From IMG/VR virus record IMGVR_UViG_3300020045_009460, positions 1-63,736 of that record: a stretch of DNA of 63,736 nucleotides; one strand, written 5' to 3'. The DNA comes from a virus (Duplodnaviria > Caudoviricetes). This document shows positions 7,004-46,074 of the stretch, piece by piece (position 1 is the first letter of the stretch; the number at the start of each line of letters is the position of its first letter). A model generated the notes under the pieces. The model did no database searches and was not told the origin of the DNA. It worked only from the letters and a program-made list of their open reading frames with translations. Made by a program: the position numbers and the translations under genes.

Positions 7004-7678
7004 ATGAGTCATTTTGATATCACACGTTTTATTAAGTATGTAGTTCGCCAAGAAGTAGATGGCAACGAAGCTGTTTATGGATATGAAGTCCCCGATCGAA
7101 CTATCGTTCCTGCGGGCAGCGTCATTCCTGATAATACCGTGTTCGGTAAAGAATGCGTGTTCATGGATGGGGTGATATTCGGTAGCAGCTGTTCATTCGG
7201 TGAACACTGCTCATTCGGGGCCAGATGTCGCATAGGTGGTAACGCTATTTTTACCGCTGGGTGTCACATAGGGTTTAAAAGCGTCATCGGGGGATATTCT
7301 ACCTTTGATGACGTTATTATTGCTGACTACGTGTTTATCGGGGCATCTTGTAGATTTAACGGCCACTCTGTTTTGGGTCAGCGTTGCGTTGTAAGTGACT
7401 ACGCAGTATTCAACAGAACGTTTGTGGGGCACCACACCTCTATCGGTGTCGAAGCCATTTTTGATGGCGGTTCTGTTTTGGGGAACCGCTGTTATATCGG
7501 CTCGAGAGCGCTTTTCCGTGATCGAGTTCGAGTGGGGCAAGATTCTGTTGTGGATGTTATGGCCACTTTCCATGTCCCAGCGCATCTGGAAACAGGTGTT
7601 ACTATTGAGGATGGCTGGAAAGGCCACGCCCCAGTGGTTCAAAGCAGATGTATTATCGGTTGCAGAGGTGATGAATGA
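7004..7678 (+). CDS. Hexapeptide-repeat (left-handed beta-helix) protein 1
   Basis: Periodic [FIV]Gxxxx repeats (VFGKEC, IFGSSC, SFGEHC...). Confidence 0.8.
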   Translation: MSHFDITRFIKYVVRQEVDGNEAVYGYEVPDRTIVPAGSVIPDNTVFGKECVFMDGVIFGSSCSFGEHCSFGARCRIGGNAIFTAGCHIGFKSVIGGYSTFDDVIIADYVFIGASCRFNGHSVLGQRCVVSDYAVFNRTFVGHHTSIGVEAIFDGGSVLGNRCYIGSRALFRDRVRVGQDSVVDVMATFHVPAHLETGVTIEDGWKGHAPVVQSRCIIGCRGDE

Positions 7679-7953
7679 ATAACGATGTTTTGCTTCCTAC
7701 TGGTGGCATACAAGCTGTTGGTAAACATATCGAACGTGTTTCTGTTGGACGTACCTCCGATGGTGAACAGCCTCGTAAAGGCCCTAATAGTTTCTATAAA
7801 GGCCGCAGCAAAAAGGTGCTTATTAAATTGTTCATGGAAAAGGGCCACAGCAAAGAGCGTTCGCGCCAGCTGGCTAAAGTGTGGTTAGGTCTCAAAGACA
7901 GCGAGCGCGAAGAGATCATGGCCAGCCAGACCTCAGCAGTCCTCCGTAGCTAA
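7675..7953 (+). CDS. Basic hypothetical protein
   Basis: GAGG RBS, ATGA overlap. Confidence 0.6.
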   Translation: MNNDVLLPTGGIQAVGKHIERVSVGRTSDGEQPRKGPNSFYKGRSKKVLIKLFMEKGHSKERSRQLAKVWLGLKDSEREEIMASQTSAVLRS

Positions 7954-8098
7954 CACCAATCCCAGCACCGCCCCGGAGATAGCAAACGAGCTTTCTCCGG
8001 CTTTTCCAGTTCGCTCCCCGACACCACCCCGCCACAAATATACCGCCAATCTGCACGCACTCTCTCCGTGTCTCGTGTTTATTTACGCTGATAATATA

Positions 8099-8127
8099 TT
8101 GACAACAGTTTGTAAATGTGATATAAT
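8099..8127 (+). promoter_or_regulatory. sigma70 promoter
   Basis: TTGACA-17-TATAAT with TGTGn. Confidence 0.9.
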
Positions 8128-8160
8128 AATTACATCAAATAGGCACATGAGGAACTGCAA

Positions 8161-8337
8161 ATGATTATCGACCTGACTCCCAGCCAGCTTCTGGTGGTTG
8201 AAATGGCGTTGACCGATTTCCGCAATGAACTTTTTCTGCAGCGCATGTGCGTCCACAGTGATGACGCTGCTGCAGAATTGAATTCCCAAAACAATGACGT
8301 ATGTCAAGTATTATCTAAAATTTCCGAGGGGAAATAA
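8161..8337 (+). CDS. Hypothetical 58-aa protein
   Basis: Read by hand; GAGGA RBS; abuts next ATG. Confidence 0.6.
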   Translation: MIIDLTPSQLLVVEMALTDFRNELFLQRMCVHSDDAAAELNSQNNDVCQVLSKISEGK

Positions 8338-8832
8338 ATGTTTGAGAAAAATTTACGGGGAGGTTATGTAGTCCCCCCATCCACCATGGTCCCGGAAAAT
8401 ACCATTTTTCCTAATTATTCCGAAGTGGGTCACCATTGCCACATTGGAAACGGTTGTAAATTCGGGGATGGGGTATCCTTTGGGCACCATTCATTGGTAG
8501 GCACCAACTGCACCGTAGGAAACCGAGCAAAGATCCAAAATGATGTGTCGTTCGGAGCCGGTTGCTATTTCGGGCATCACACCTATGCTTTACGGGGTGT
8601 GATATTTAATAACGGCACATCATTCGGCAGCGAATGCACGTTCGGGGATAGATGTTCGTTCATGGGGAGCCATATTCGCGTCGGCGATCAGTCTTGGTTC
8701 GGTGACAGGCCTACATTTACACGGCCCACAATAGTTGGGATAGGTTCTATGTTTTTATCAGGCAGACCAGAACTAGCAGTAGACCCGCACCAAGATATAA
8801 TCAGGCGCGAGAAAGAGTCCCATCGGGCATAA
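8338..8832 (+). CDS. Hexapeptide-repeat (left-handed beta-helix) protein 2
   Basis: HIGNGC KFGDGV SFGHHS LVGTNC repeats; paralogue of 7004-7678. Confidence 0.8.
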   Translation: MFEKNLRGGYVVPPSTMVPENTIFPNYSEVGHHCHIGNGCKFGDGVSFGHHSLVGTNCTVGNRAKIQNDVSFGAGCYFGHHTYALRGVIFNNGTSFGSECTFGDRCSFMGSHIRVGDQSWFGDRPTFTRPTIVGIGSMFLSGRPELAVDPHQDIIRREKESHRA

Positions 8833-9920: not shown

Positions 9921-9994
9921 CTCAGAAGTTTTAAATTAGCATCTTGACCATTTTGGGCCAATTACTAACCTTGACGCGGATACCCTATCCTATA

Positions 9995-10023
9995 TTGACT
10001 TTACAAGCTTTCTATGGTATAAT
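9995..10023 (+). promoter_or_regulatory. sigma70 promoter (terminase operon)
   Basis: TTGACT-17-TATAAT with TGn. Confidence 0.85.
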
Positions 10024-10037
10024 CGAAAAAATCACCC

Positions 10038-10523
10038 ATGTCAGAGGCATGTATGACAGCAATTCCGACTATGACCGACGCCATGGACTTTAAAGCGTTA
10101 GTAGAGAAGCACAAAGAGGAGGAGTGGTTAAACCTAGCTAACGATAAAAAGCTATTTGTATGTTGGTACATACGGTCAGGATACTCCACGCATAAAATGC
10201 GCGACGTGGGGATCAGTGACCAAGAAGTGTCCATGTACCTTTCTGATCCGCTTACTCAGGCTGCTATCGCGGACGTAGGGAAGCAATACTCCGAGGTGAC
10301 AACCTTTACACGTGTCGGCCTTCAAGCCAGATTGTCGCGTGCATTGGATATGGCGCTTGGGGAGGTAGAGCGTCCAACATACAGCAAAGAGGGGGAATTG
10401 ATGTACCGCAGAGTGGTTGATTTAACATCTGCAGCCAGATTGTTAGAGATGGCAGAAAAATATATCAATGACCCTAATGCGGATGATGATGCCAAAACGC
10501 CTGCGCCTTGGGAGGAACGGTGA
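10038..10523 (+). CDS. terS: Terminase small subunit
   Basis: Size and position directly upstream of terL; start codon uncertain. Confidence 0.6.
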   Translation: MSEACMTAIPTMTDAMDFKALVEKHKEEEWLNLANDKKLFVCWYIRSGYSTHKMRDVGISDQEVSMYLSDPLTQAAIADVGKQYSEVTTFTRVGLQARLSRALDMALGEVERPTYSKEGELMYRRVVDLTSAARLLEMAEKYINDPNADDDAKTPAPWEER

Positions 10524-11956
10524 TATTTGATATTGATGAAGAACTGAAGCCGTATGACCCGGAAAAAGCCAGACTAAGACCAAATCCTTTTGTTGTTCTA
10601 GATCCTTCATGTGGGGATATACGACATTATCGCATCATAACATTCAAAGGAGGTCGAGGATCGGGTAAAACGTACAATGTGGCTGATGCTGTAACTCGGT
10701 ACATGCATACAGCTAAGATGAAAGTGCTGTGCGGGCGTGAATTACAAATATCTATCGCGGATTCATCTAAAGCAGAACTCGAATTAGCCATAGCCCGCCA
10801 AGGCAGAGATCATTTATTCGACACAGCTGAAAAATATATAAAATCAAAGAAAACAGGATCGGTCGCAATATTTAAGGGTCTTAGGTCCAATATAGATTCT
10901 CTTAAATCTATGGCTGGCATCAAAATGTTCTGGGGAGAAGAAGCACAGGGGGTATCTAAAGAAACGATGGAGAAATTATTACCATCGATACGTACTCCGG
11001 GGAACAGGCTCATCTTTACTATGAATCCCGAAGATGAGGAATCATTCGTATACCAAGAGCTGGTCGCAAAGGCAGGGCAGCCGGGGTATGAGGATAGATT
11101 AGCGGTAGAAGTCAATTACTATGACAACCCGTACTTCACTGAATCACTTGAGTCAGACCGCATAAACTCGCTTCAGCGCATATTAGATGCACCCACAGAA
11201 GACGCCAAAAATCAAGCCATTGCCGACTATTGCTGGATATGGCTTGGTCACACTAAAAAGACAGTAGGTAACACTGTAATTAAAAGGTCAGAGCAAAGAG
11301 AATTCGAGGCACCTCCTTGGGGTAAACAAGAATTCTTGTTCGGAGCAGACTGGAGTAATGGCGGTGCTGATCCTACTGCGGGTGTTCGTCTGTTCATAGC
11401 ACTTAATGAGCGAGGAAAAGCATGTCTTTGGGTTGATTATGAATTGTACACAAATAATCACAGCCTAGATGAATTGCCTCCGTTATTTTCATCGGACCTG
11501 CTAGGGCTTACATCAAAAATGCACGGTGTGCCTCAGCCTACTTTACGAGCCGATTCGTCTTTGCCGCTAGCGATCAACAAAATGAACGAATGCGGCATAG
11601 ACTGTGAGCCAGCTAAAAAGGCCGCAGGTTCAGTTGAAAATGGCCTGATGTTTATCAATAACTTTGATAGGGTGTACATCCATCCTAGATGTGCTAACTT
11701 AATAGTAGAAGCAAAGAAATATCGATGGAAGGTCGACGCCAGAACTGGTAAAATATTATCTGTATTTGAAAAAGGGAATGACCACCTGTGGGATGCCATA
11801 AGATACGCGCTGGAGCACCTATCAACCCAAAAACCTGATTCGTTCTTCACGTTTACTAACAGCTTGGCCACGTGGCAGTGGTCGGAAGAAGACCAAAAAT
11901 TCCACGAGATAAAGAGCGAGTCAGATGGATTCGGAGCTGGGTTCGGTTTCTATTGA
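10520..11956 (+). CDS. terL: Terminase large subunit (PBSX-type)
   Basis: GGRGSGKT Walker A, WGEEA Walker B, TMNP, GADW, NDHLWDAIRY; GTG start after GGAGG. Confidence 0.95.
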   Translation: MIFDIDEELKPYDPEKARLRPNPFVVLDPSCGDIRHYRIITFKGGRGSGKTYNVADAVTRYMHTAKMKVLCGRELQISIADSSKAELELAIARQGRDHLFDTAEKYIKSKKTGSVAIFKGLRSNIDSLKSMAGIKMFWGEEAQGVSKETMEKLLPSIRTPGNRLIFTMNPEDEESFVYQELVAKAGQPGYEDRLAVEVNYYDNPYFTESLESDRINSLQRILDAPTEDAKNQAIADYCWIWLGHTKKTVGNTVIKRSEQREFEAPPWGKQEFLFGADWSNGGADPTAGVRLFIALNERGKACLWVDYELYTNNHSLDELPPLFSSDLLGLTSKMHGVPQPTLRADSSLPLAINKMNECGIDCEPAKKAAGSVENGLMFINNFDRVYIHPRCANLIVEAKKYRWKVDARTGKILSVFEKGNDHLWDAIRYALEHLSTQKPDSFFTFTNSLATWQWSEEDQKFHEIKSESDGFGAGFGFY

Positions 11957-12015: not shown

Positions 12016-14295
12016 ATGTTTAACAGAATTGCTCTTGCAATTAAGATCATCCTGCGGGGCGAACAAAAACCGCCTGTGCAGGAGCCATACCCTGAACGGT
12101 TAGACCCGTTAAGTCCGTTCGCCCGCATTAGGCGCAACGACTCCCTAGAAGACGGGCAAATGCCTGAACTTCGGTCCGCAATGGATGACATCGCACCTAG
12201 TGAAAAAGAGTCTGCCAAAACGATTGCCATGGACTCCGCATTAGTGCACAAGGGATTTGTGGGCGATGACTCCACGGGGGCATCAACCCTTAAAGCAGGA
12301 TCAATGGGGATGTATGGCGTCCCTGAGGGGATCACGTCTTGGTATATGAGCCAAGGGTTCATAGGATGGCAGACATGTGCCATCATGGCGCAGCAATGGT
12401 TAATAAACAAAGCGTGTGAACAGTCAGGCTTGGATGCCGTCCGGCACGGGTGGGAATTAAACATAGCAGACGGGACTGATATCGACCCGGTAATCATGGA
12501 AGACATAATCCAGACCGATATTGAGTATTCAGTTAAAAACCACCTGTCCAATATGGTTAAGTTCACCAATATTTTCGGTATTCGCGTGGTCGTGTTTGAT
12601 GTGGATTATGAAGATGACGACGCGTTAGAAATGCCATTCAATATCGATGCTGTGCGGGCCGGTTCATACAAAGGACTCCGTCAGATTGACCCTTACTGGT
12701 GCGCTCCTCTGTTAAATACTGAAGCAGCCACCAACCCCGCATCAATGCGGTTCTATAAACCCACTTGGTGGGTAATCGGCGGCAAAAAATACCACTGGAC
12801 ACACCTGCACGTGGCTATGGGTCCAGAGGTGGCTGATATTCTAAAGCCTACCATATATTACGGCGGACTATCTTTGGTTCAACGTATTTATGAGCGGGTA
12901 TATGCAGCAGAGCGAGTCGCTAACGAAGCCCCTTTGCTGTCGATGTCTAAGCGAACAACTGCTCTTCACGTGGATTTAAAGAAAGTAGCTGCTGACCAGA
13001 AAGGATTTGAAGAGAGATTAGGGCAGTGGATAAATTACCGCGACAACCACGCCATTAAAGTGCTGGGTCTGGAAGAAGCGATGGAGGAGTCAGATACCTC
13101 TCTGGCTGACTTCGATTCCGTGATTATGAGCCAATATCAGCTGGTGGCAGCCATAGCAGAAACACCCGCTACTAAATTATTAGGTACATCGCCTAAAGGA
13201 TTTAACGCAACAGGTGAATTCGAAGAAAAGAGCTACCACGAAAAATTAGAAACCATCCAGTCCGATGAATGCGACCCTCTGTTGGCCAGACATTACGAAC
13301 TAATGGCTAAATCGAAAGGGTGGGATTTCAGCATAGGAGTAGCATGGAACCCTACAGATGCTAAAACAGCCGAGGCCCAAGCTGATATTAACGATAAAAA
13401 GGCATCCACAGGCGAGCGGTTGATCAATGCTGGGGTCATCAGTCCGGATGAAGAACGTAAGCGCGTAAGGACTGACAAATTTTCTGGATACTCCAATATC
13501 AAAGACGAAGAGGATGATGCCTCCGAAGAGCTATTGGAGCCGGGGGAATTGGATCATCCGGGGGCTGAAGAGAAAGGGGAGGCAGCAGTGGAGACAGCAG
13601 GAGCCTCGGAAGAAAAACCAAATGAACCGGAACCGGGCGACAGCGCGGCGGATGATGAAGTTGACGGGGGCGGCGAGGAAAAGCTTCTTCGGCTAGTAGA
13701 GTTGTTCGGGCAGCTGGTCACTCTTCTAAAAAAGACACAGCCCAAGCCCGCGAAAAGGGCATCGCTACCGAGTGTTAACGCATCAGTGCAAGCTAGTGTA
13801 GTACCTAAGGTCAAATCGGCTTTGAGGGGGGATGTTCCTCCTATAAATGAAAGCGATATGCCTAAGATCCCGTGGAACGGATATCAGATAGCTATCGAAA
13901 ACCCAGCCGGTACTTATCGCACCGGGGCATCTGAAGACGGGTCTGAATGGTCTACCAGAATGCAATATGATTACGGGTACGTAATGGGGACTGTCGGGGC
14001 TGATGGAGATGGAGTAGATGTATTTATGGGGAGATCATCAGACGCTCCTAATGTATATATCGTGAACCAGAACAATCCTGAGACTGGAGAATTCGACGAG
14101 CATAAGGTATTCATAGGATTTAACAGTGCGGGCGATGCGGAAAATGCATACCAAGCGGCGTATGGTTCTGGCTGGGGCGGTTTTGGTGATATACAAATAG
14201 TCACCATCCAAGGGTTTAAAGAATGGATGGGTAACGGGGACCAATCTAAGCCATATACCATGGGATGGAGAACCGAGGCGAATAATGGCATTTAA
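12016..14295 (+). CDS. Portal protein (DUF1073 type) fused to a C-terminal inorganic pyrophosphatase-like (InPase) domain
   Basis: Follows terL; PATKLLGTSPKGFNATGE portal motif; C-terminal IENPAG...YDYGY...GADGDGVDVF...FDEHKVFIGF. Confidence 0.9.
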   Translation: MFNRIALAIKIILRGEQKPPVQEPYPERLDPLSPFARIRRNDSLEDGQMPELRSAMDDIAPSEKESAKTIAMDSALVHKGFVGDDSTGASTLKAGSMGMYGVPEGITSWYMSQGFIGWQTCAIMAQQWLINKACEQSGLDAVRHGWELNIADGTDIDPVIMEDIIQTDIEYSVKNHLSNMVKFTNIFGIRVVVFDVDYEDDDALEMPFNIDAVRAGSYKGLRQIDPYWCAPLLNTEAATNPASMRFYKPTWWVIGGKKYHWTHLHVAMGPEVADILKPTIYYGGLSLVQRIYERVYAAERVANEAPLLSMSKRTTALHVDLKKVAADQKGFEERLGQWINYRDNHAIKVLGLEEAMEESDTSLADFDSVIMSQYQLVAAIAETPATKLLGTSPKGFNATGEFEEKSYHEKLETIQSDECDPLLARHYELMAKSKGWDFSIGVAWNPTDAKTAEAQADINDKKASTGERLINAGVISPDEERKRVRTDKFSGYSNIKDEEDDASEELLEPGELDHPGAEEKGEAAVETAGASEEKPNEPEPGDSAADDEVDGGGEEKLLRLVELFGQLVTLLKKTQPKPAKRASLPSVNASVQASVVPKVKSALRGDVPPINESDMPKIPWNGYQIAIENPAGTYRTGASEDGSEWSTRMQYDYGYVMGTVGADGDGVDVFMGRSSDAPNVYIVNQNNPETGEFDEHKVFIGFNSAGDAENAYQAAYGSGWGGFGDIQIVTIQGFKEWMGNGDQSKPYTMGWRTEANNGI

Positions 14296-39649: not shown

Positions 39650-40062
39650 ACAATCTCTCCATGTTTTGATATTAATATAGCTGAATCTACGGCATAATCT
39701 ATTGTAGATACTTTGAAATGCAAGCGCCCGGCCAGATGCGCGATATTGAAAATAGCATCCGGCTCTGAGACTGATTTCGCCGGGAGTACGTAGTAACAGT
39801 TATCGTCACCAATTATCATCACCGGATTTCCACCCGCTTTGATGCGGTCTTTAAACCAGCGGTACTGAGTGGGCCGGATTTCAATGCCCCCGCCCTTTTT
39901 AACCACTTTAAGCTCTATCTGGGTAATGTGGCCATCGATACAACAGTCAGCGTCGGGAAATCCGGCTGATGTCATATGCGACTCTACCCAAGATAGATGT
40001 GAACGGGGATATTTCCTGCTCACAGAGTCGGCTAACTCATCCCGGAGTTCTGATTCTTTCAT
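39634..40062 (-). CDS. VRR-NUC/Holliday-junction-resolvase-like nuclease
   Basis: KESEL...GFPD...IELK...IRPTQ..W...GG; ATGA-coupled to datZ. Confidence 0.8.
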   Translation of the reverse strand: MKESELRDELADSVSRKYPRSHLSWVESHMTSAGFPDADCCIDGHITQIELKVVKKGGGIEIRPTQYRWFKDRIKAGGNPVMIIGDDNCYYVLPAKSVSEPDAIFNIAHLAGRLHFKVSTIDYAVDSAILISKHGEIVCPIK

Positions 40063-40637
40063 AGTACCGGCCATTTCAAATCGTAATTCTGACACCATGA
40101 ATGAGTAATGTGATAGACATCATCACGAGCTTGTGAAACAGCATTGAAAGCAATAGGTCCTTCTGCGCATATGGAGGGCAGTTTAACCATAAAATCATCA
40201 AAAGCGTGGATGATATATGACTGAACGCTCGATGCTCTGATATCCGCTTGGTCAACATTAACTTCGCACCAATATATCGACTCTATCAAATCAGCCGCTT
40301 TGATGATCCATTTATATGTTGACGGAGTGTTTTCGAAGCCGTCTCTTTCAGCCAAAGCAGCCACTTCAATGCCTACATTTCGCAGAGCTATTTTGACATG
40401 GGACGGAATATCCCCTGTTGTCATTTCATCCATATCATGACACGCACCTAAGTAAAAGGCATGATCCGGGTTGATGCCGATAGCACCGTGGTCCACAGCG
40501 TTTTCGGCAATGTGCTTAGCCAAGAATGCCACCCGGAATGAATGTTGGGCCACATCTTGGGGCGATTTGGTGGTGACCATGTGAAAACGCGTCACTTCGT
40601 TTAGGTGCCACGCTGCTCTTAATTTTCTGATGTCCAT
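40059..40637 (-). CDS. datZ: HD-domain dATP triphosphohydrolase
   Basis: VTRFH...VAQHSF...HDMDE..TGDIPS.VK...IKAADLIE; in the purZ operon. Confidence 0.85.
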   Translation of the reverse strand: MDIRKLRAAWHLNEVTRFHMVTTKSPQDVAQHSFRVAFLAKHIAENAVDHGAIGINPDHAFYLGACHDMDEMTTGDIPSHVKIALRNVGIEVAALAERDGFENTPSTYKWIIKAADLIESIYWCEVNVDQADIRASSVQSYIIHAFDDFMVKLPSICAEGPIAFNAVSQARDDVYHITHSWCQNYDLKWPVL

Positions 40638-40639
40638 AG

Positions 40640-40954
40640 TTAAATCTCTTTGTTGTGCTGCAGACATCCACCGCTGGGGTGCCATGTCCGCTTTTTGTTT
40701 ATTTCTAATTTATCGTAGAATGCTTCAGCTGGATTGATATCGTGAAGTTTGGCTACATCAAGAACCAAAATAAGTATATCGGCTATCTCGCCTGCTACGT
40801 CTTTGGTTCCTAGCGTCACAGCCTCCATTAACTCGGCTACTTCGCCTGCCATCTTAATAACAGTGCGGCGGGAATCTCTCCCCGCCAACAATGTTTCAAT
40901 CCAAGCCGCTTGCGCTTCCACCATGTTATTAATGTCTGGCGAGCGGCTGTCCAT
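40640..40954 (-). CDS. mazZ: MazG-like/DUF550 (d)GTP diphosphohydrolase
   Basis: K..GEVAEL...GEIADILIL...KLEINKKRTW; between purZ and datZ. Confidence 0.85.
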   Translation of the reverse strand: MDSRSPDINNMVEAQAAWIETLLAGRDSRRTVIKMAGEVAELMEAVTLGTKDVAGEIADILILVLDVAKLHDINPAEAFYDKLEINKKRTWHPSGGCLQHNKEI

Positions 40955-42036
40955 TATTCGCCATCCAGAGCGTTTTCGTAGCCTTCCGAGTAGCGCTCTA
41001 AGAATTCGTCAACACTGATCACCTGATCGCGGCGAGGGCCGGTCCCGACCATAGTGATGATGTCTTTGTCGATATAGCCCAGATCGCCCATCATCTCGTT
41101 AACCTGTTCGATAACATCAACTGCTTGATGAGGGTTGTAATTGACAAAATTGAGCATCACTTCATCGATGCCGTTGGCGATAATTGCTTCGTGGATCTGC
41201 GCATAGCTAAACGAGAATACGCGGCGAACACGTTTGGTCACAGTGGTGAGTTCTGGAGCCACCCCGAGCTGTTCCCAAGTGAGTTCTTCCTGATCCGGGT
41301 AAATATCGCCGCTAAAGCCATCGGCAGTATTGCCGACGCGGATCGGATGGAGACGGGCCACACCGATGGCTTTGCGAAGCCAACCGGCTGGGATGGCGCA
41401 GTCGGCCATGTAGCGAGTAACAGTACAGTCGCGAGATGTGCAGTACGGGTAGAAGCCTGAATTGTGCCCCAGCGAGTAACCCTGAGCGCCCTCAACCAAA
41501 ATGCTCTCAGATTCGAGGAGATGCTGCAAATAGTCGGCATGGCTCACAACATATTTATCAAGGCCGTACTCGGCCAGCAGCGGCATCTGATCGCGAGCAA
41601 TAGCACCCACTTCGCGGCGTATTTTTGACACGACCGCTTCACCTGAACCCTGCATAGTAGAAGAGATGCGGGATAATGTTTGCTGTTCTTTGTCCTTCAT
41701 CTCCTGTGTGACGATCATGCAGGCTTCATGAATAACAAAAATCTTTCCTTCAATAAGGTCCGCCACACCTTTTAATTCTTCCGCCAGACGTGCGGGGGAG
41801 AATGCGCTTCCCGGACCCATCATGATGCGTTTGGACACCATTACCGCGTTAGGCATGGCTTTGTGCATCCATACGCGCCCTTCCGGAGTGACAGTGGTGT
41901 GGCCCGCGTTGGGAAGATTGGCGTTAATCACAGTATCGTATTTGTTAGCTACTGCAAGATAGTCACACAGCAACCCTTTACCAGTAGAACCGAACTGCAA
42001 GTCTACTACCACATCTACTTTACGATTGTTTTTCAT
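40954..42036 (-). CDS. purZ: N6-succino-2-amino-2'-deoxyadenylate synthase
   Basis: PurA fold (NAGHT, EGAQG, YPYCTSR, TTVT.R.RR) with GSTGKG in place of GDEGKG and NFVN in place of TKLD. Confidence 0.95.
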   Translation of the reverse strand: MKNNRKVDVVVDLQFGSTGKGLLCDYLAVANKYDTVINANLPNAGHTTVTPEGRVWMHKAMPNAVMVSKRIMMGPGSAFSPARLAEELKGVADLIEGKIFVIHEACMIVTQEMKDKEQQTLSRISSTMQGSGEAVVSKIRREVGAIARDQMPLLAEYGLDKYVVSHADYLQHLLESESILVEGAQGYSLGHNSGFYPYCTSRDCTVTRYMADCAIPAGWLRKAIGVARLHPIRVGNTADGFSGDIYPDQEELTWEQLGVAPELTTVTKRVRRVFSFSYAQIHEAIIANGIDEVMLNFVNYNPHQAVDVIEQVNEMMGDLGYIDKDIITMVGTGPRRDQVISVDEFLERYSEGYENALDGE

Positions 42037-42112
42037 TACTTTTCTCCGTATAGGCCTCTGCGGCCCGGATTGTGGGAAGTCTAATTAGACCTCCCGTTTC
42101 AACTACGACGTT

Positions 42113-42141
42113 ATTGTATCACGTCTAGGTCATGCTGTCAA
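42113..42141 (-). promoter_or_regulatory. sigma70 promoter of purZ-mazZ-datZ
   Basis: TTGACA-17-TACAAT with TGn. Confidence 0.85.
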
Positions 42142-42167
42142 GTATTCTATCGTACCAAGAATTAAAC

Positions 42168-42980
42168 TTAAAGCTGAACTTTCGGCCTGTTGCTGATGAT
42201 AAGTTCCCCGTAAGAGCCTTGGTTCGATGTGCGCTTGATGGTGGACTTAGTCTCCACCCGTTCAATAGTATACCCTTCATACATCTCGCGCACTTCGGGG
42301 ATATCAGAATTAGTAAGAATGACCCGGCATCCCAACACATCAAGCCTTTTGAACTCGTCACATAGCTTTATGTGATCATAAGTAGTAAAGCCGCGTGACG
42401 TATAATCAACGTGGCCGTTGGCAGTGAAAGGCATATAGGGAGGGTCCATAAACACTACATCCCCCGGCACAGCTAAAGCCGTAGTAAGCTCGTAGGATTG
42501 AGTATAGATCCGGGAATGTCGTATACACCGCAGCACCTTTTGTGCGCTATCTAAAACATGACCATTAATTATTGGCGATACTTCACTGCGTCGGTGGTCA
42601 TAAGGAACGTTAAAACCGCCTTTTTTGTTGACACGCCACAGCCCATTAACGCACAATTTATTTAAGTATATAAATCTGGATGCGACATTAACATTATATG
42701 TCGGCGACAGTGAACGGACCGTAGCGTAATCCCACGGGTTGTTGTCCCATGAATTCACCCTTTCTGCCAGCTCAGACCCCATCGCATGTATTACTCTATA
42801 CGCCTCCATCAAATCTGGATTAGCATCACCGATGATTGCTGTGCTAGGCTCTAGGTGGAAAAATAAGGCCCCCGCTCCGAAAAATGGCTCAATATATGTT
42901 CCGTACTCTGAGGGCATGTGCTCCATCAATTTAGGAATCATACGTCGTTTGCCGCCAGCCCACCTGAAAATTGGTAACAT
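42168..42980 (-). CDS. dam: Dam-family N6-adenine DNA methyltransferase
   Basis: RWAGGK, YIEPFFGAGA, NGLWRVNKKGGFNVPY, FMDPPY, LTNSD, ELIISN. Confidence 0.92.
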   Translation of the reverse strand: MLPIFRWAGGKRRMIPKLMEHMPSEYGTYIEPFFGAGALFFHLEPSTAIIGDANPDLMEAYRVIHAMGSELAERVNSWDNNPWDYATVRSLSPTYNVNVASRFIYLNKLCVNGLWRVNKKGGFNVPYDHRRSEVSPIINGHVLDSAQKVLRCIRHSRIYTQSYELTTALAVPGDVVFMDPPYMPFTANGHVDYTSRGFTTYDHIKLCDEFKRLDVLGCRVILTNSDIPEVREMYEGYTIERVETKSTIKRTSNQGSYGELIISNRPKVQL

Positions 42981-42988
42981 AATGTCCC

Positions 42989-44854
42989 CTAATAAAGATA
43001 TTGGCCTTTGGCCGTAGATGCTTCGAAATATGTTTTCCCGGTGCCGTTTAGTTCCAACATCATAGGAACCCGCATCCAAGGAAATGAATCCTGAAAAGAA
43101 TTGATCACATCTAAACACACTTCGGCCACGTCTTTTTCAAGTGGAATAGAGAATTCAAACGAGTCATGCACATTTAAAAGCAAAAAAGAATCGTGACGGG
43201 CTAACGTAGCCTCCAAGACAACTAGAGCCGTTTTGTTGACGTCCGCTGCTGTTCCTTGAATTATCAGGCCTGATGCCGCATACGACTTATGCCCACGCGG
43301 GAATCGCATCCTCCGGCCAGAATGGGTTCTTACCCATCCTCGTTGCTCGGCACATCTTTTGGCACGCTCGGCCAAATCTTTAACACCTTTCACCTTTTGA
43401 TGGTATATGGCTATGGCATCTTTCGCTTCTTTGCCCGCTTTTTTATAAGTGATCAGTTCGCCACGGGATGTAAAAGATTCCCACTTAAACGGTAGGCCCA
43501 GTTTCTCAGCTATTGCTCCATCCCCGGAATTAAATATCATTGACAAATTCAGCTGTTTGGCATTGACCTCCCCGGAATATGTCGCGTTTCGCTTAATGCC
43601 CATTAGGTCGGCGGTGAATTGATGGAAGTCAAGTTCAGGGTTTTCCGCATATGCACTAATAACTATTTCATTGTTAGCTAGGTGGGCGAACACCCGGACA
43701 TCGCATGACATGATATCTGTACTGCCCCAACGGTGCCCTACTTCGGGCAAAAAGCATGATTTAACTATTTTCGCTACTCGCTTGTTGCGTGATGGAATCT
43801 GTTGCAGTGCGGGTTCTTGGTACGACAATCGCCCGGTGCCAGTCCCTCCGTCCTCCCCCTTGCATTGGTTTATGGATGGGTACACACGGCCATCCACCGC
43901 ATGGCCTATTACGTGTCCTTTTAGGAATGTATCACGCGTTTTGATATTAGAGCGGATATCTACTATCAATTGCGCTTTTGGGTCATTTACCATTTCACGT
44001 AGAATAGAAGATGGAATTGATGGCCCCCCTGTTTTTTTCGCTGTTTCGATTTGGTATCCGTTGTTGGCCACCCAAACATTGCCCTCTTTTCGAGGCTCGA
44101 ACACTTTTTTTATTTGGGGTGCGCTATTCACGTTTATCTCAAATCCGACCATTTCATTTATCTTTTTCTGGTCTTCTGTGATAATAGTATCCAGCTCCAA
44201 AATAGCTGCGTTAGCTGCTACAAGGTCAACCCTTACACCCCGGCGAGTCATGCGCTGCAACGTAGGGAATATGCTCATTTCGAAGTCGACGACCTCGTGC
44301 AAATCATCTTCCTTTATTTTGGCCACCTGCCAATCATACAGCCGTAAAGTAAGAGAGGTATCCTGCTTAGCATAAGGCCCCACTAACTCGGGGGGCGCTT
44401 TATGCAAGTTTGGCATTTGAGCAGACCGGGTAGCTTTCCCCCCGAAAATAGCCGCCAATTTTTCGTAAATATCATCCACTTTGTTATCTTTCAAATATTT
44501 TTTAGATAGAGCATCTAATGAATACTCCATCTCATGCTCATTTATTAGGCACGCCTGTATTTGGGTGCATCGTACTTGATCCAAAGGGATTTCTAGGCCC
44601 ATACCGTAGCCCATTTTACAGTCAAAGTGGGCATTGTGCATAGCGATGACGCCTTTGTATGACTTCATCTGTTTATTAAACCAGCGCTTTATCTCCGGCT
44701 GGCGTCGCACATCCCAGTAATAGTCATTCCCATCGGGGGTGGACACCGACACGCCGAACACTTTATCGCGCGGATAATATAATCCAGTGGCTTCTGTATC
44801 GAACGCAATCTTGTCAAATGATGATAATTCGGGAAATACTTCAGGTGCGTACAT
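42989..44854 (-). CDS. dpoZ: Family A DNA polymerase, DpoZ type
   Basis: Exonuclease DTE/HNAHFD/YAKQD; TGRLS; motif B NAKQLNLSMIFNSG; motif C HDS; next to purZ. Confidence 0.88.
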   Translation of the reverse strand: MYAPEVFPELSSFDKIAFDTEATGLYYPRDKVFGVSVSTPDGNDYYWDVRRQPEIKRWFNKQMKSYKGVIAMHNAHFDCKMGYGMGLEIPLDQVRCTQIQACLINEHEMEYSLDALSKKYLKDNKVDDIYEKLAAIFGGKATRSAQMPNLHKAPPELVGPYAKQDTSLTLRLYDWQVAKIKEDDLHEVVDFEMSIFPTLQRMTRRGVRVDLVAANAAILELDTIITEDQKKINEMVGFEINVNSAPQIKKVFEPRKEGNVWVANNGYQIETAKKTGGPSIPSSILREMVNDPKAQLIVDIRSNIKTRDTFLKGHVIGHAVDGRVYPSINQCKGEDGGTGTGRLSYQEPALQQIPSRNKRVAKIVKSCFLPEVGHRWGSTDIMSCDVRVFAHLANNEIVISAYAENPELDFHQFTADLMGIKRNATYSGEVNAKQLNLSMIFNSGDGAIAEKLGLPFKWESFTSRGELITYKKAGKEAKDAIAIYHQKVKGVKDLAERAKRCAEQRGWVRTHSGRRMRFPRGHKSYAASGLIIQGTAADVNKTALVVLEATLARHDSFLLLNVHDSFEFSIPLEKDVAEVCLDVINSFQDSFPWMRVPMMLELNGTGKTYFEASTAKGQYLY

Positions 44855-44863
44855 AGCGGCCCC

Positions 44864-45112
44864 TTAGAATGGTTGGTCATCAGGGCCGTTTGATGTTGGG
44901 ATGTGCGACGGTTGGCGCTGCTGTGTTTTGGCGGTTACCTTCAAAGATAGGAATGGTTCACCTGTCCGACTAGTTTTCTTCCAGCCGGACACAAAAAATT
45001 CTTTCCCTTCCACGTTGACGCTTCCGGTGTAGTCAGGGCTTGTTGGAGTGCGTTTTTCTTTAGCGCGGAACAGTGCGCCTGAATTTGTAGGGTCGTACGA
45101 TTTATTTTCCAT
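44864..45112 (-). CDS. Small ssDNA-binding-like protein (DUF736-like)
   Basis: NSGALF...PDYTG...SGW....G..FLSL; acidic DDQPF tail. Confidence 0.7.
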   Translation of the reverse strand: MENKSYDPTNSGALFRAKEKRTPTSPDYTGSVNVEGKEFFVSGWKKTSRTGEPFLSLKVTAKTQQRQPSHIPTSNGPDDQPF

Positions 45113-45192: not shown

Positions 45193-45966
45193 TTAGAATT
45201 CTTTTTCTTCTTCGGCGGAGTAGTTGGAACCCTTGGCCCCCGATTCCTCCGCGTCAGGCTCATGGTTGGTGGTTACCGCCTTGTCTTTCAAGAACTCGTA
45301 CAAAGATTCTGCTTCTTTATACGTGGCCTGATTGACAAACCCAGCTGGACGGGCGTCATAGGTGTAATAATCGCCCTTAGCGGAACTTGCCTCCACCGTG
45401 GATACTGTATACGCCTTGGCAAAACGATCGACGCCAGACATCGTAACCAAAGAGTTCAACTTACGGCTGAATTTAATAGCCGATTTGGTACATGCGACGA
45501 TGGCTTGCTCAAGACCGCCATCTGGCTTGACGATGAACCCGATATGGGAGTGGCTTTCCATCAATTCAACGTCGTCGCCATCTTCCATCGCTTCGATCTC
45601 AGTGCGCGCACGCACTTCATCACTGAAAGGCCATGCACCTTTGAAGCCACCGCCTTTTTCACGGTCTTTGAAAGCAATCCATTCTTTGCGGAACAGAACC
45701 GGCACGAACAGGAGACCTTCATCGCCATAAAGCTCATCGGTCAAAGTGTTATACAAGCGGCCTTGCTCCGCACCGGCGATGTATTTGGGGTCATTCTTTT
45801 TCAACTGCGGAGAAATCGCCTGAATGATGCCGATGCGGGGCAACATAATGTCGTTTGAATCGACCTGCTCATTACCACGAGCGTCACCCTTTTTCAGCCA
45901 TTCTGGCATTTGGTCAGCGGCGGCCAGAAGAGCGGTGTGAGTTGCGGCGATTTGGGTTTTTGACAT
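45193..45966 (-). CDS. Putative ssDNA-binding protein
   Basis: PRI.IIQA.SPQ...GA..G...NTLT.E; acidic C-terminus ending in F. Confidence 0.65.
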   Translation of the reverse strand: MSKTQIAATHTALLAAADQMPEWLKKGDARGNEQVDSNDIMLPRIGIIQAISPQLKKNDPKYIAGAEQGRLYNTLTDELYGDEGLLFVPVLFRKEWIAFKDREKGGGFKGAWPFSDEVRARTEIEAMEDGDDVELMESHSHIGFIVKPDGGLEQAIVACTKSAIKFSRKLNSLVTMSGVDRFAKAYTVSTVEASSAKGDYYTYDARPAGFVNQATYKEAESLYEFLKDKAVTTNHEPDAEESGAKGSNYSAEEEKEF

Positions 45967-46045: not shown

Positions 46046-46074
46046 ATTATACCACATCCGTGTGGCTCTGTCAA
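46046..46074 (-). promoter_or_regulatory. sigma70 promoter
   Basis: TTGACA-17-TATAAT; spacer CCACA-CGGA-TGTGG. Confidence 0.9.

Follow-up and report, generated by a model that had tools for sequence, protein, structure and literature searches.

What would an adenine methyltransferase do in a genome whose adenine is predicted to have been replaced by another base? This question is raised by IMGVR_UViG_3300020045_009460, a virus record of 63,736 bp (analyzed at its full length and referred to here as the window), in which a gene for a Dam-type methylase stands among the genes of the 2-aminoadenine (Z) pathway. The record comprises the entire virus, with direct terminal repeats and a completeness rating of 100%, and its genes for a tail sheath, baseplate, large terminase and portal fusion identify it as a myovirus. 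On the minus strand, the gene order is gp34-like, ssb, dpoZ, dam, purZ, mazZ and datZ. A first-pass annotation had described a dpoZ stop at 42989 followed 8 nt later by dam (42980-42168) and then by purZ-mazZ-datZ, and the open reading frames (ORFs) confirm this arrangement. PurZ, MazZ, DatZ and DpoZ put Z where adenine (A) would be, and Z retains the N6 amine of adenine, with an additional amino group in the minor groove. We propose that the methylase may methylate the N6 of Z at GZTC sites (GATC with Z in place of A) in the phage's own DNA, which would give additional protection from nucleases against which Z by itself is ineffective, and we hold the chances of this being correct to be about even.

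The assignment of dam to the D12 class of N6-adenine DNA methyltransferases is based upon both its profile match and its motifs. PF02086 (MethyltransfD12) matches with 146 bits against a cut-off of 22 and is covered completely (profile positions 1-253 of 253), and the gene is likewise recovered in a six-frame search of the genome with the same profile. The motifs noted in the first-pass annotation are all found in the translation: EPFFGAG, the S-adenosylmethionine-binding motif, at residues 31-37 and DPPY at residues 179-182, both aligned to their equivalents in DpnM and E. coli Dam (EcoDam), as well as the NGLWRVN..G.FNVP recognition loop, which reads NGLWRVNKKGGFNVP and occupies residues 112-126. 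Hence both of the motifs that mark the D12 class, FxGxG and DPPY, are present, the latter being invariant in three family alignments. Among solved structures, the nearest are DpnM (8.8e-44), EcoDam (1.6e-23) and T4 Dam (2.6e-6). DpnM (M.DpnII 1, PDB 2dpm), the GATC methylase of the DpnII system of Streptococcus pneumoniae, matches over residues 3-266 and shares the W.GGKR N-terminal motif, FxGxG, DPPY and the hairpin (CVNGLWRVNKKGGFNVPY in the window versus NFNGLYRVNSKNQFNVPY in DpnM). A public gene call (P0001, 257 aa) begins at a start that would remove the conserved FRWAGGKRR motif, and ATG 42980 is therefore the better start. Unlike DpnM, the window enzyme has no adjacent endonuclease and is encoded in a predicted Z genome; since its flanks are dpoZ and purZ, rather than the cognate nuclease of a DpnII-type restriction-modification system, it is an orphan methylase. 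No other DNA methylase was detected in the window with PF01555, PF05869 or PF00145, and PF02086 has a single match there, which is dam itself.

The recognition residues provide a further clue as to the target. In EcoDam, R124 (Gua4), L122 and P134 (A:T pair) and N120 read the G:C and A:T pairs of GATC (PMC4417163). The equivalents in the window are R116, L114, P126 and N112, and these four positions are invariant or conservative (L/M at 114) within a seven-member Dam clade. EcoDam and T4 Dam are themselves orphan GATC methylases of the same family. Judging from these residues, the window methylase is likely specific for GATC. An AlphaFold2 model of the enzyme, calculated from a seven-row alignment, has a mean predicted local distance difference test (pLDDT) score of 68.4, with scores of less than 50 in the recognition and DPPY loops, and is thus too weak for judging whether the active site has space for the 2-amino group of Z.

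The second half of the proposal depends upon the Z-synthesis genes, of which homologues of PurZ, MazZ, DatZ and DpoZ are all encoded together. The window PurZ is 60% identical to that of Burkholderia phage Bm1, 58% to that of BCSR129 and 50% to that of phiVC8. The profile phrog_1211 also matches bacterial PurA and was positive in all 14 control genomes; as it does not separate PurZ from PurA, the assignment as PurZ is based upon the cluster context and upon 50-60% identity to phage proteins annotated as PurZ. DpoZ is 51% identical to the DNA polymerase I of Vibrio phage phiVC8 over 620 residues. MazZ is 37% identical to S-2L MazZ (E 3e-13), and its MazG match (PF03819) lies marginally below the cut-off (21.2 versus 22 bits). 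DatZ is 28% identical to S-2L DatZ (E 1e-10) in an alignment that begins at residue 15 of the long ORF. This ORF overlaps mazZ by 46 nt, and an alternative ATG at 40637 directly follows the mazZ stop; because the alignments to both S-2L DatZ and the DatZ of a relative begin at residues 15-16 of the long ORF, the latter is probably the true start. Phages carrying this full kit are reportedly fully Z-substituted, and from the complete exclusion kit we infer that adenine is likewise replaced by Z in the DNA of this phage.

It is evident that the position of dam is precise and that the gene is maintained. The junction between dpoZ and dam reads TAG-gggacatt-ATG, an 8-nt spacer containing a GGGGA Shine-Dalgarno sequence. 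The gap between dam and purZ is 131 nt in length and contains a near-consensus promoter, with no terminator-like site reported. Given this promoter, the dpoZ transcription unit ends with dam, and purZ-mazZ-datZ are served by a promoter of their own. Accordingly, the earlier description of a Z operon holds for the gene order, but not for the transcriptional arrangement. Both hexamers of the purZ promoter are conserved in an alignment of the window, its relative L008, Bm1 (PP183292) and BCSR129 (MW460247). Promoter-like matches as a whole are not enriched across the region, with 9 observed versus 11.1 in shuffled sequences. The Burkholderia phages Bm1 and BCSR129, with genomes of 66-68 kb and a capsid identity of 61% to the window, are the closest isolates and share with the window the order helicase - gp34-like - ssb - dpoZ - purZ - mazZ - datZ - next two genes, except that in both of them the promoter and purZ come immediately after dpoZ, and neither genome contains a D12 gene anywhere. 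The paper describing Bm1 does not mention the Z genes. As the promoter is also present in these two dam-less phages, dam was either inserted exactly between the dpoZ stop and the promoter or lost from exactly this site in the other lineage. The promoter itself has been kept despite a PurZ identity of only ~60% and a difference of 10 points in GC content between the phages concerned.

A relative of the window, represented by a 31-kb IMG/VR contig and a 63.5-kb metagenome contig (L171), is collinear with it at 76% DNA identity. The relative encodes an intact dam at the same position, 78% identical in amino acid sequence, amongst neighboring proteins that are 63-96% identical. Between the two dam genes, the proportion of nonsynonymous differences (pN) is 0.144 and that of synonymous differences (pS) is 0.815, values that are given instead of dN/dS because of saturation at synonymous positions (pS 0.70-0.88). 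Purifying selection acts upon dam. The homologues nearest to Dam (P0003-P0007) are 63-45% identical, with P0003 located on a 65.7-kb contig, and they are not found in IMG/VR. A metagenome scan for further Dam homologues yielded only contig L171 of the relative plus relatives of at most 43% identity, which are without Z genes in their available flanks, and a megablast search of the 4.8-kb region against 50,697 phage records gave no match.

To what extent is this association found in other Z phages? We searched 10 kb around 157 purZ loci with hidden Markov models, which corresponds to 126 distinct contigs out of at least 529 IMG/VR purZ stretches. A D12 gene occurs within 10 kb of purZ in 5 of the 126. 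All five are encoded on the purZ strand, within 2.7 kb, and in or beside the cluster, in four layouts: dpoZ-dam-purZ (the window type); dpoZ-D12-purZ-mazZ-datZ in L246, in which the methylase is unrelated to that of the window and overlaps the end of dpoZ; purZ-mazZ-D12-datZ in the divergent relatives L061 and L099; and datZ-orf-D12 in L245. Thus, the dpoZ-purZ junction is occupied by two unrelated D12 lineages (window and L246) and the mazZ-datZ junction by another. Between L099 and L061, no other gene of the cluster is conserved as well as that of the methylase, at 65% identity versus 61 for PurZ, 64 for DpoZ, 42 for MazZ and 43 for DatZ. The first-pass annotation had asked whether dam would prove to be randomly placed and decaying in relatives, which is not the case: the phages that carry it have an intact copy within or adjoining the cluster, although it is missing from most Z phages. 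The D12 methylase of L245 (12536-13663), encoded after datZ, has 375 aa and is ~130 aa longer than its relatives, with the extra part being C-terminal.

The methylases of the second type retain DPPY and the N-terminal GGK motif, but lack the Dam recognition loop. A reverse survey starting from the L061-type methylase considered the best 80 of at least 319 IMG/VR loci; among these, the 15 loci with a D12 protein at least 35% identical to that of L061 include 7 with a PurZ-family gene at a distance of up to 10 kb, versus none of the 65 below this value. Five new PurZ-like ORFs encountered there match phrog_1211 at 1e-56 to 1e-73, although this profile matches PurA as well. In trees of the D12 domain, eight Z-linked rows (L061, L099, L245, L246, L295, L297, L301 and L306) together with two rows from one incomplete contig form a single clade, with starred support values of 98 in FastTree (123 rows) and 97 in the quick IQ-TREE analysis (59 rows). 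The two rows that are not Z-linked are tandem, diverged copies on L296 (IMGVR_UViG_3300042317_001400; 7758-8570 and 9962-11032); no PurZ is present in the 50 kb of this record, which is only 26% complete and a fragment of a larger phage. The window Dam falls outside of the clade, in another starred group that contains 14 rows without a Z link. The Z label requires 3 changes on the tree versus 9.7 in shuffles, and none of 500 shuffles was as low. When all ten Z-linked rows are constrained to one clade, the resulting tree is rejected by an approximately unbiased (AU) test (log-likelihood difference 140, p 7e-81), the group for this test having been chosen after the first tree had been seen. From this rejection and the tree placement, it follows that D12 methylases entered Z clusters at least twice. 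On two contigs with the Z-linked methylase type, L301 (13286-13777) and L343 (16348-16872), the gene just before purZ matches phrog_24386 and phrog_1238 (annotated as phosphoheptose isomerase), which may be another variant of the Z module.

Based upon these features, we envisage the following scenario. The gene would encode an active orphan N6-adenine methyltransferase of the DpnM/Dam type, which would be made together with the Z-selective DpoZ and would act upon the freshly replicated DNA of the phage. The base flipped into the DPPY pocket would be Z, and because Z would stand in place of A with its N6 amine intact, the product at GZTC sites would be N6-methyl-2-aminoadenine (m6Z). The presumable benefit would be cover against GATC-directed nucleases that are not stopped by Z, either enzymes of the DpnII/MboI/BstYI type or, where the host is Dam-positive, MutH. 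A phage Dam acting upon a base-replaced genome has a precedent in that of T4, whose DNA contains hydroxymethylcytosine, but in T4 the replaced base differs from the methylated base, whereas in the window the methyl acceptor itself would be non-canonical. The chemistry has been described in vitro, with Z-containing sites serving as substrates for E. coli methyltransferases, Dam among them (Czernecki et al. 2021, PMC8342488, which credits this result to Marzabal 1995 and Brennan 1986), and the same source states that 6-methyl-2-aminoadenine blocks an endonuclease. The first-pass annotation knew of no characterized m6Z DNA; this stands for natural DNA, but in vitro methylation of Z sites was already in print. 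We found no report of natural m6Z or of a methylase in a Z cluster in the full-text literature, with subscription journals and supplements outside of our reach; a metaGPA preprint on purZ-associated genes never mentions a methyltransferase or methylase, and a 2026 NAR paper on Z-phage nucleotide metabolism makes no mention of methyl. As for the nucleases in question, 47% of 147 restriction enzymes still cut DNA containing deoxy-Z (dZ), including BstYI (RGATCY), whereas DpnI does not cut it (Yang et al. 2026, PMC12944874).

A number of observations weigh against this scenario. With regard to the enzyme, the intercalating residue of EcoDam, Tyr119 (Phe in DpnM), is Val111 in the window rather than an aromatic residue, and Y119A is the second most damaging of the EcoDam alanine mutants (PMC4417163). 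The first-base-pair contacts of EcoDam, K9 and Y138, are Arg6 and Arg130 in the window, although this contact is not conserved within the Dam family (PMC4417163). Together, these differences lower the certainty of strict GATC specificity. Trp115 is found where DpnM and EcoDam have Tyr or Cys (Cys123 in EcoDam), and since Val111 and Trp115 (42642-42650, minus strand) are invariant in all seven members of the clade, down to 46% identity, they constitute a stable feature and not decay. Furthermore, the in vitro efficiency of methylation on Z is reported to be at least ten-fold lower (PMC8342488). With regard to distribution, Z phages do not generally carry D12 genes. Searches of whole records with PF02086 were positive in only 3 of 85 purZ records, and the profile was absent from all 25 purZ records with a completeness of 90% or more. 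A profile covering both lineages detected no D12 gene in any of 18 isolated purZ phages (~16 host genera; among them phiVC8, SH-Ab 15497, PMBT28, S-2L, Wayne and ZP6), nor was an N6_N4 methylase found in them. Isolates such as the first five have the same purZ-mazZ-datZ core with dpoZ upstream. On one contig, a D12 gene lies 53 kb away from purZ, and the D12 share among purZ contigs is not clearly higher than the phage-wide rate, with 697 of 50,697 phage records matching this Dam. Phage methylases are often located in replication modules, and position alone is consequently weak evidence. Finally, the virus is uncultured, so its Z content and its methylation are both predictions from its genes.

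These distribution data might suggest that dam is simply an ordinary orphan methylase that came to lie in a replication module by chance, scarcely or not at all active on the Z genome and functionally unconnected with the Z pathway. The closest isolates and most Z phages do without such a gene, one contig has it far from purZ, and 5 of 126 purZ contigs is of the same order as the phage-wide figure. A mere passenger would hardly be expected to remain intact across saturated synonymous divergence (pS 0.82, pN 0.14), nor would one expect two unrelated D12 lineages at the identical dpoZ-purZ junction and another at mazZ-datZ, or the concentration of purZ neighbors among the close members of the second lineage (7 of 15 versus 0 of 65 more distant ones, among the best 80 of at least 319); we therefore consider this explanation improbable. 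The supposition of the first-pass annotation that Dam is tied to the Z pathway is, in this respect, partly borne out: the site is conserved and D12 genes entered Z clusters at least twice, but most Z phages manage without one. An ordinary methylase could also find employment outside of the phage genome. Host DNA is the sole pool of ordinary GATC in the infected cell, and its methylation or over-methylation could disturb replication control, mismatch repair or gene expression; in a variant of this idea, a Dam-negative chromosome would be exposed to its own methyl-dependent nucleases, freeing nucleotides for Z synthesis. The production of dam with replication genes, i.e. early or in mid-infection, would suit such a function, as would the capsid, which places the phage among Proteobacteria myoviruses, many of whose hosts have Dam-dependent systems. 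Yet, an attack upon host DNA leaves unexplained why D12 genes occur in Z clusters in four layouts and why one D12 clade is largely confined to purZ contexts. Moreover, five capsid relatives that have no Z cluster have no D12 gene either, a pattern suggesting that the gene is associated with Z and not with host range. We regard a host target as unlikely.

It is also conceivable that the substrate is ordinary adenine at GATC in incompletely substituted or early phage DNA, yielding a mixed genome in which Z and N6-methyladenine (6mA) would be complementary modifications. Adenine is the base for which Dam-family enzymes are built, with Z reportedly the poorer substrate (PMC8342488). Cloned purZ-mazZ-datZ, with or without dpoZ, gave on average 9-50% dZ in E. 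coli plasmids (PMC12944874, Table 3), from which it is clear that partial substitution is chemically possible. The phage nevertheless encodes a full exclusion kit, with DatZ, MazZ and a DpoZ 51% identical to that of phiVC8, and a methylase maintained by selection for the sake of few remaining sites would seem a poor investment, even though such genes have been kept in two D12 lineages. Residual adenine as the substrate accordingly receives only a small probability from us. Methylation of Z itself at GZTC remains our preferred reading, and a more general form of it can be stated with a confidence falling somewhat short of even: some Z phages may make m6Z, with D12 methylases being a recurrent accessory of the Z pathway that was recruited at least twice. 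In that event, the L061-type clade would be specialized on Z-DNA, and the window clade, with its Val and Trp, would have found another way of flipping and methylating a base that forms three hydrogen bonds.

One might expect the abundance of GATC to reveal whether the genome is subject to Dam or Z. The window contains 172 GATC sites versus 288.6 expected (observed/expected ratio, O/E, 0.60; z -9), which is the lowest ratio of the 16 palindromic tetramers. The same depletion is present in five of five dam-less, non-Z capsid relatives (O/E 0.51-0.71); the window depletion is thus uninformative with respect to Dam or Z and was dropped as evidence. Among dam-less purZ loci, 9 of 62 have a GATC O/E of 0.60 or below, and Bm1 and BCSR129 differ from the window in both this ratio (0.95 and 0.94 versus 0.60) and GC content (57-58% versus 47%). 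Clustering of GATC, as at P1 pac or oriC, was likewise rejected, since the maxima of 4 sites per 100 bp, 6 per 350 bp and 8 per 750 bp are reached in 28-35% of random placements. Separately, several dam-less Z phages are nearly free of GATC: phiVC8 has 3 sites versus 135.6 expected in 36.3 kb examined (O/E 0.02), PMBT28 has 1 versus 160 in 37.5 kb (O/E 0.01), and the IMG/VR loci L029 and L026 have O/E values of 0.02 and 0.04. This near-absence implies that Z substitution does not lift the selection against GATC in the hosts of those phages, and GATC purging and Dam carriage may be alternative answers to one pressure. In SH-Ab 15497 (31.7 kb examined), CCGG has an O/E of 0.0, and this site is beyond the protection of Z, as it contains no A.

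The coordinates of the cluster and its surroundings are listed below. Elsewhere, the window also encodes a PrimPol-helicase, a UvrD-like helicase and an SNF2 helicase, and its capsid protein is ~61-63% identical to those of the 60-68 kb Proteobacteria myoviruses MyoSmar, TropicalSun, Gekk3-15, Pluto, Carpasina and Bm1. The portal/minor-head protein (12016-14295, plus strand) has an additional C-terminal domain at residues ~617-751, which matches PHROGs annotated as endolysin, virion protein and DarB-like antirestriction protein. A hexapeptide-repeat transferase (7004-7678, plus strand; PF00132, 6e-15) is an uncommon gene in such phages.

Features of the Z cluster and its upstream unit in the window
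Feature	Position	Strand	Remarks
Sigma-70-type promoter candidate (TTGACA-17-TATAAT, 12/12, extended TG)	46046..46074	-	Upstream of the gp34-like/ssb/dpoZ/dam unit; consensus match only
Pam3_Gp34-like protein, first gene of the unit ending in dam	45193..45966	-	PF23977 2.4e-67; syntenic in Bm1 and BCSR129
Small single-strand DNA-binding protein (ssb)	44864..45112	-	phrog_18154 5e-16
dpoZ, family-A DNA polymerase with 3'-5' exonuclease, 621 aa	42989..44854	-	PF00476 4e-45, PF01612 3e-13
dam, orphan D12-class (DpnM/Dam-type) N6-adenine DNA methyltransferase, 270 aa	42168..42980	-	PF02086 2e-42
purZ promoter (TTGACA-17-TACAAT, 11/12, extended TG)	42113..42141	-	In the 131-nt dam-purZ spacer
purZ, 2-aminoadenylosuccinate synthetase homologue	40954..42036	-	phrog_1211 9e-79, PF00709 6e-31
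mazZ, MazG-like nucleotide pyrophosphohydrolase	40640..40954	-	PF03819 3.5e-4
datZ, HD-domain dATP triphosphohydrolase homologue	40059..40685	-	phrog_7076 5e-23, PF12917 1e-12; likely start ATG 40637

Dam-family methylases and Z genomes were each already known; what is new here is the presence of D12 methylases in or beside Z clusters. The survey supplies testable genes in the form of two unrelated methylase types in four cluster layouts. Should the proposed activity be correct, these enzymes would be ready tools for the site-specific marking of synthetic Z-DNA, and the finding would be relevant to the reading of Z or 6mA from sequencing kinetics, for which the coexistence of Z and 6mA is named as an open problem in the Z-Calling paper (PMC13128860). 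For the phages themselves, m6Z, so far only made in vitro, would become a natural DNA base, and a sequence-specific methyl mark would be stacked onto a genome-wide base replacement. Such a combination would explain how Z phages handle the restriction enzymes, about half of the total, to which Z-DNA is still susceptible (PMC12944874).

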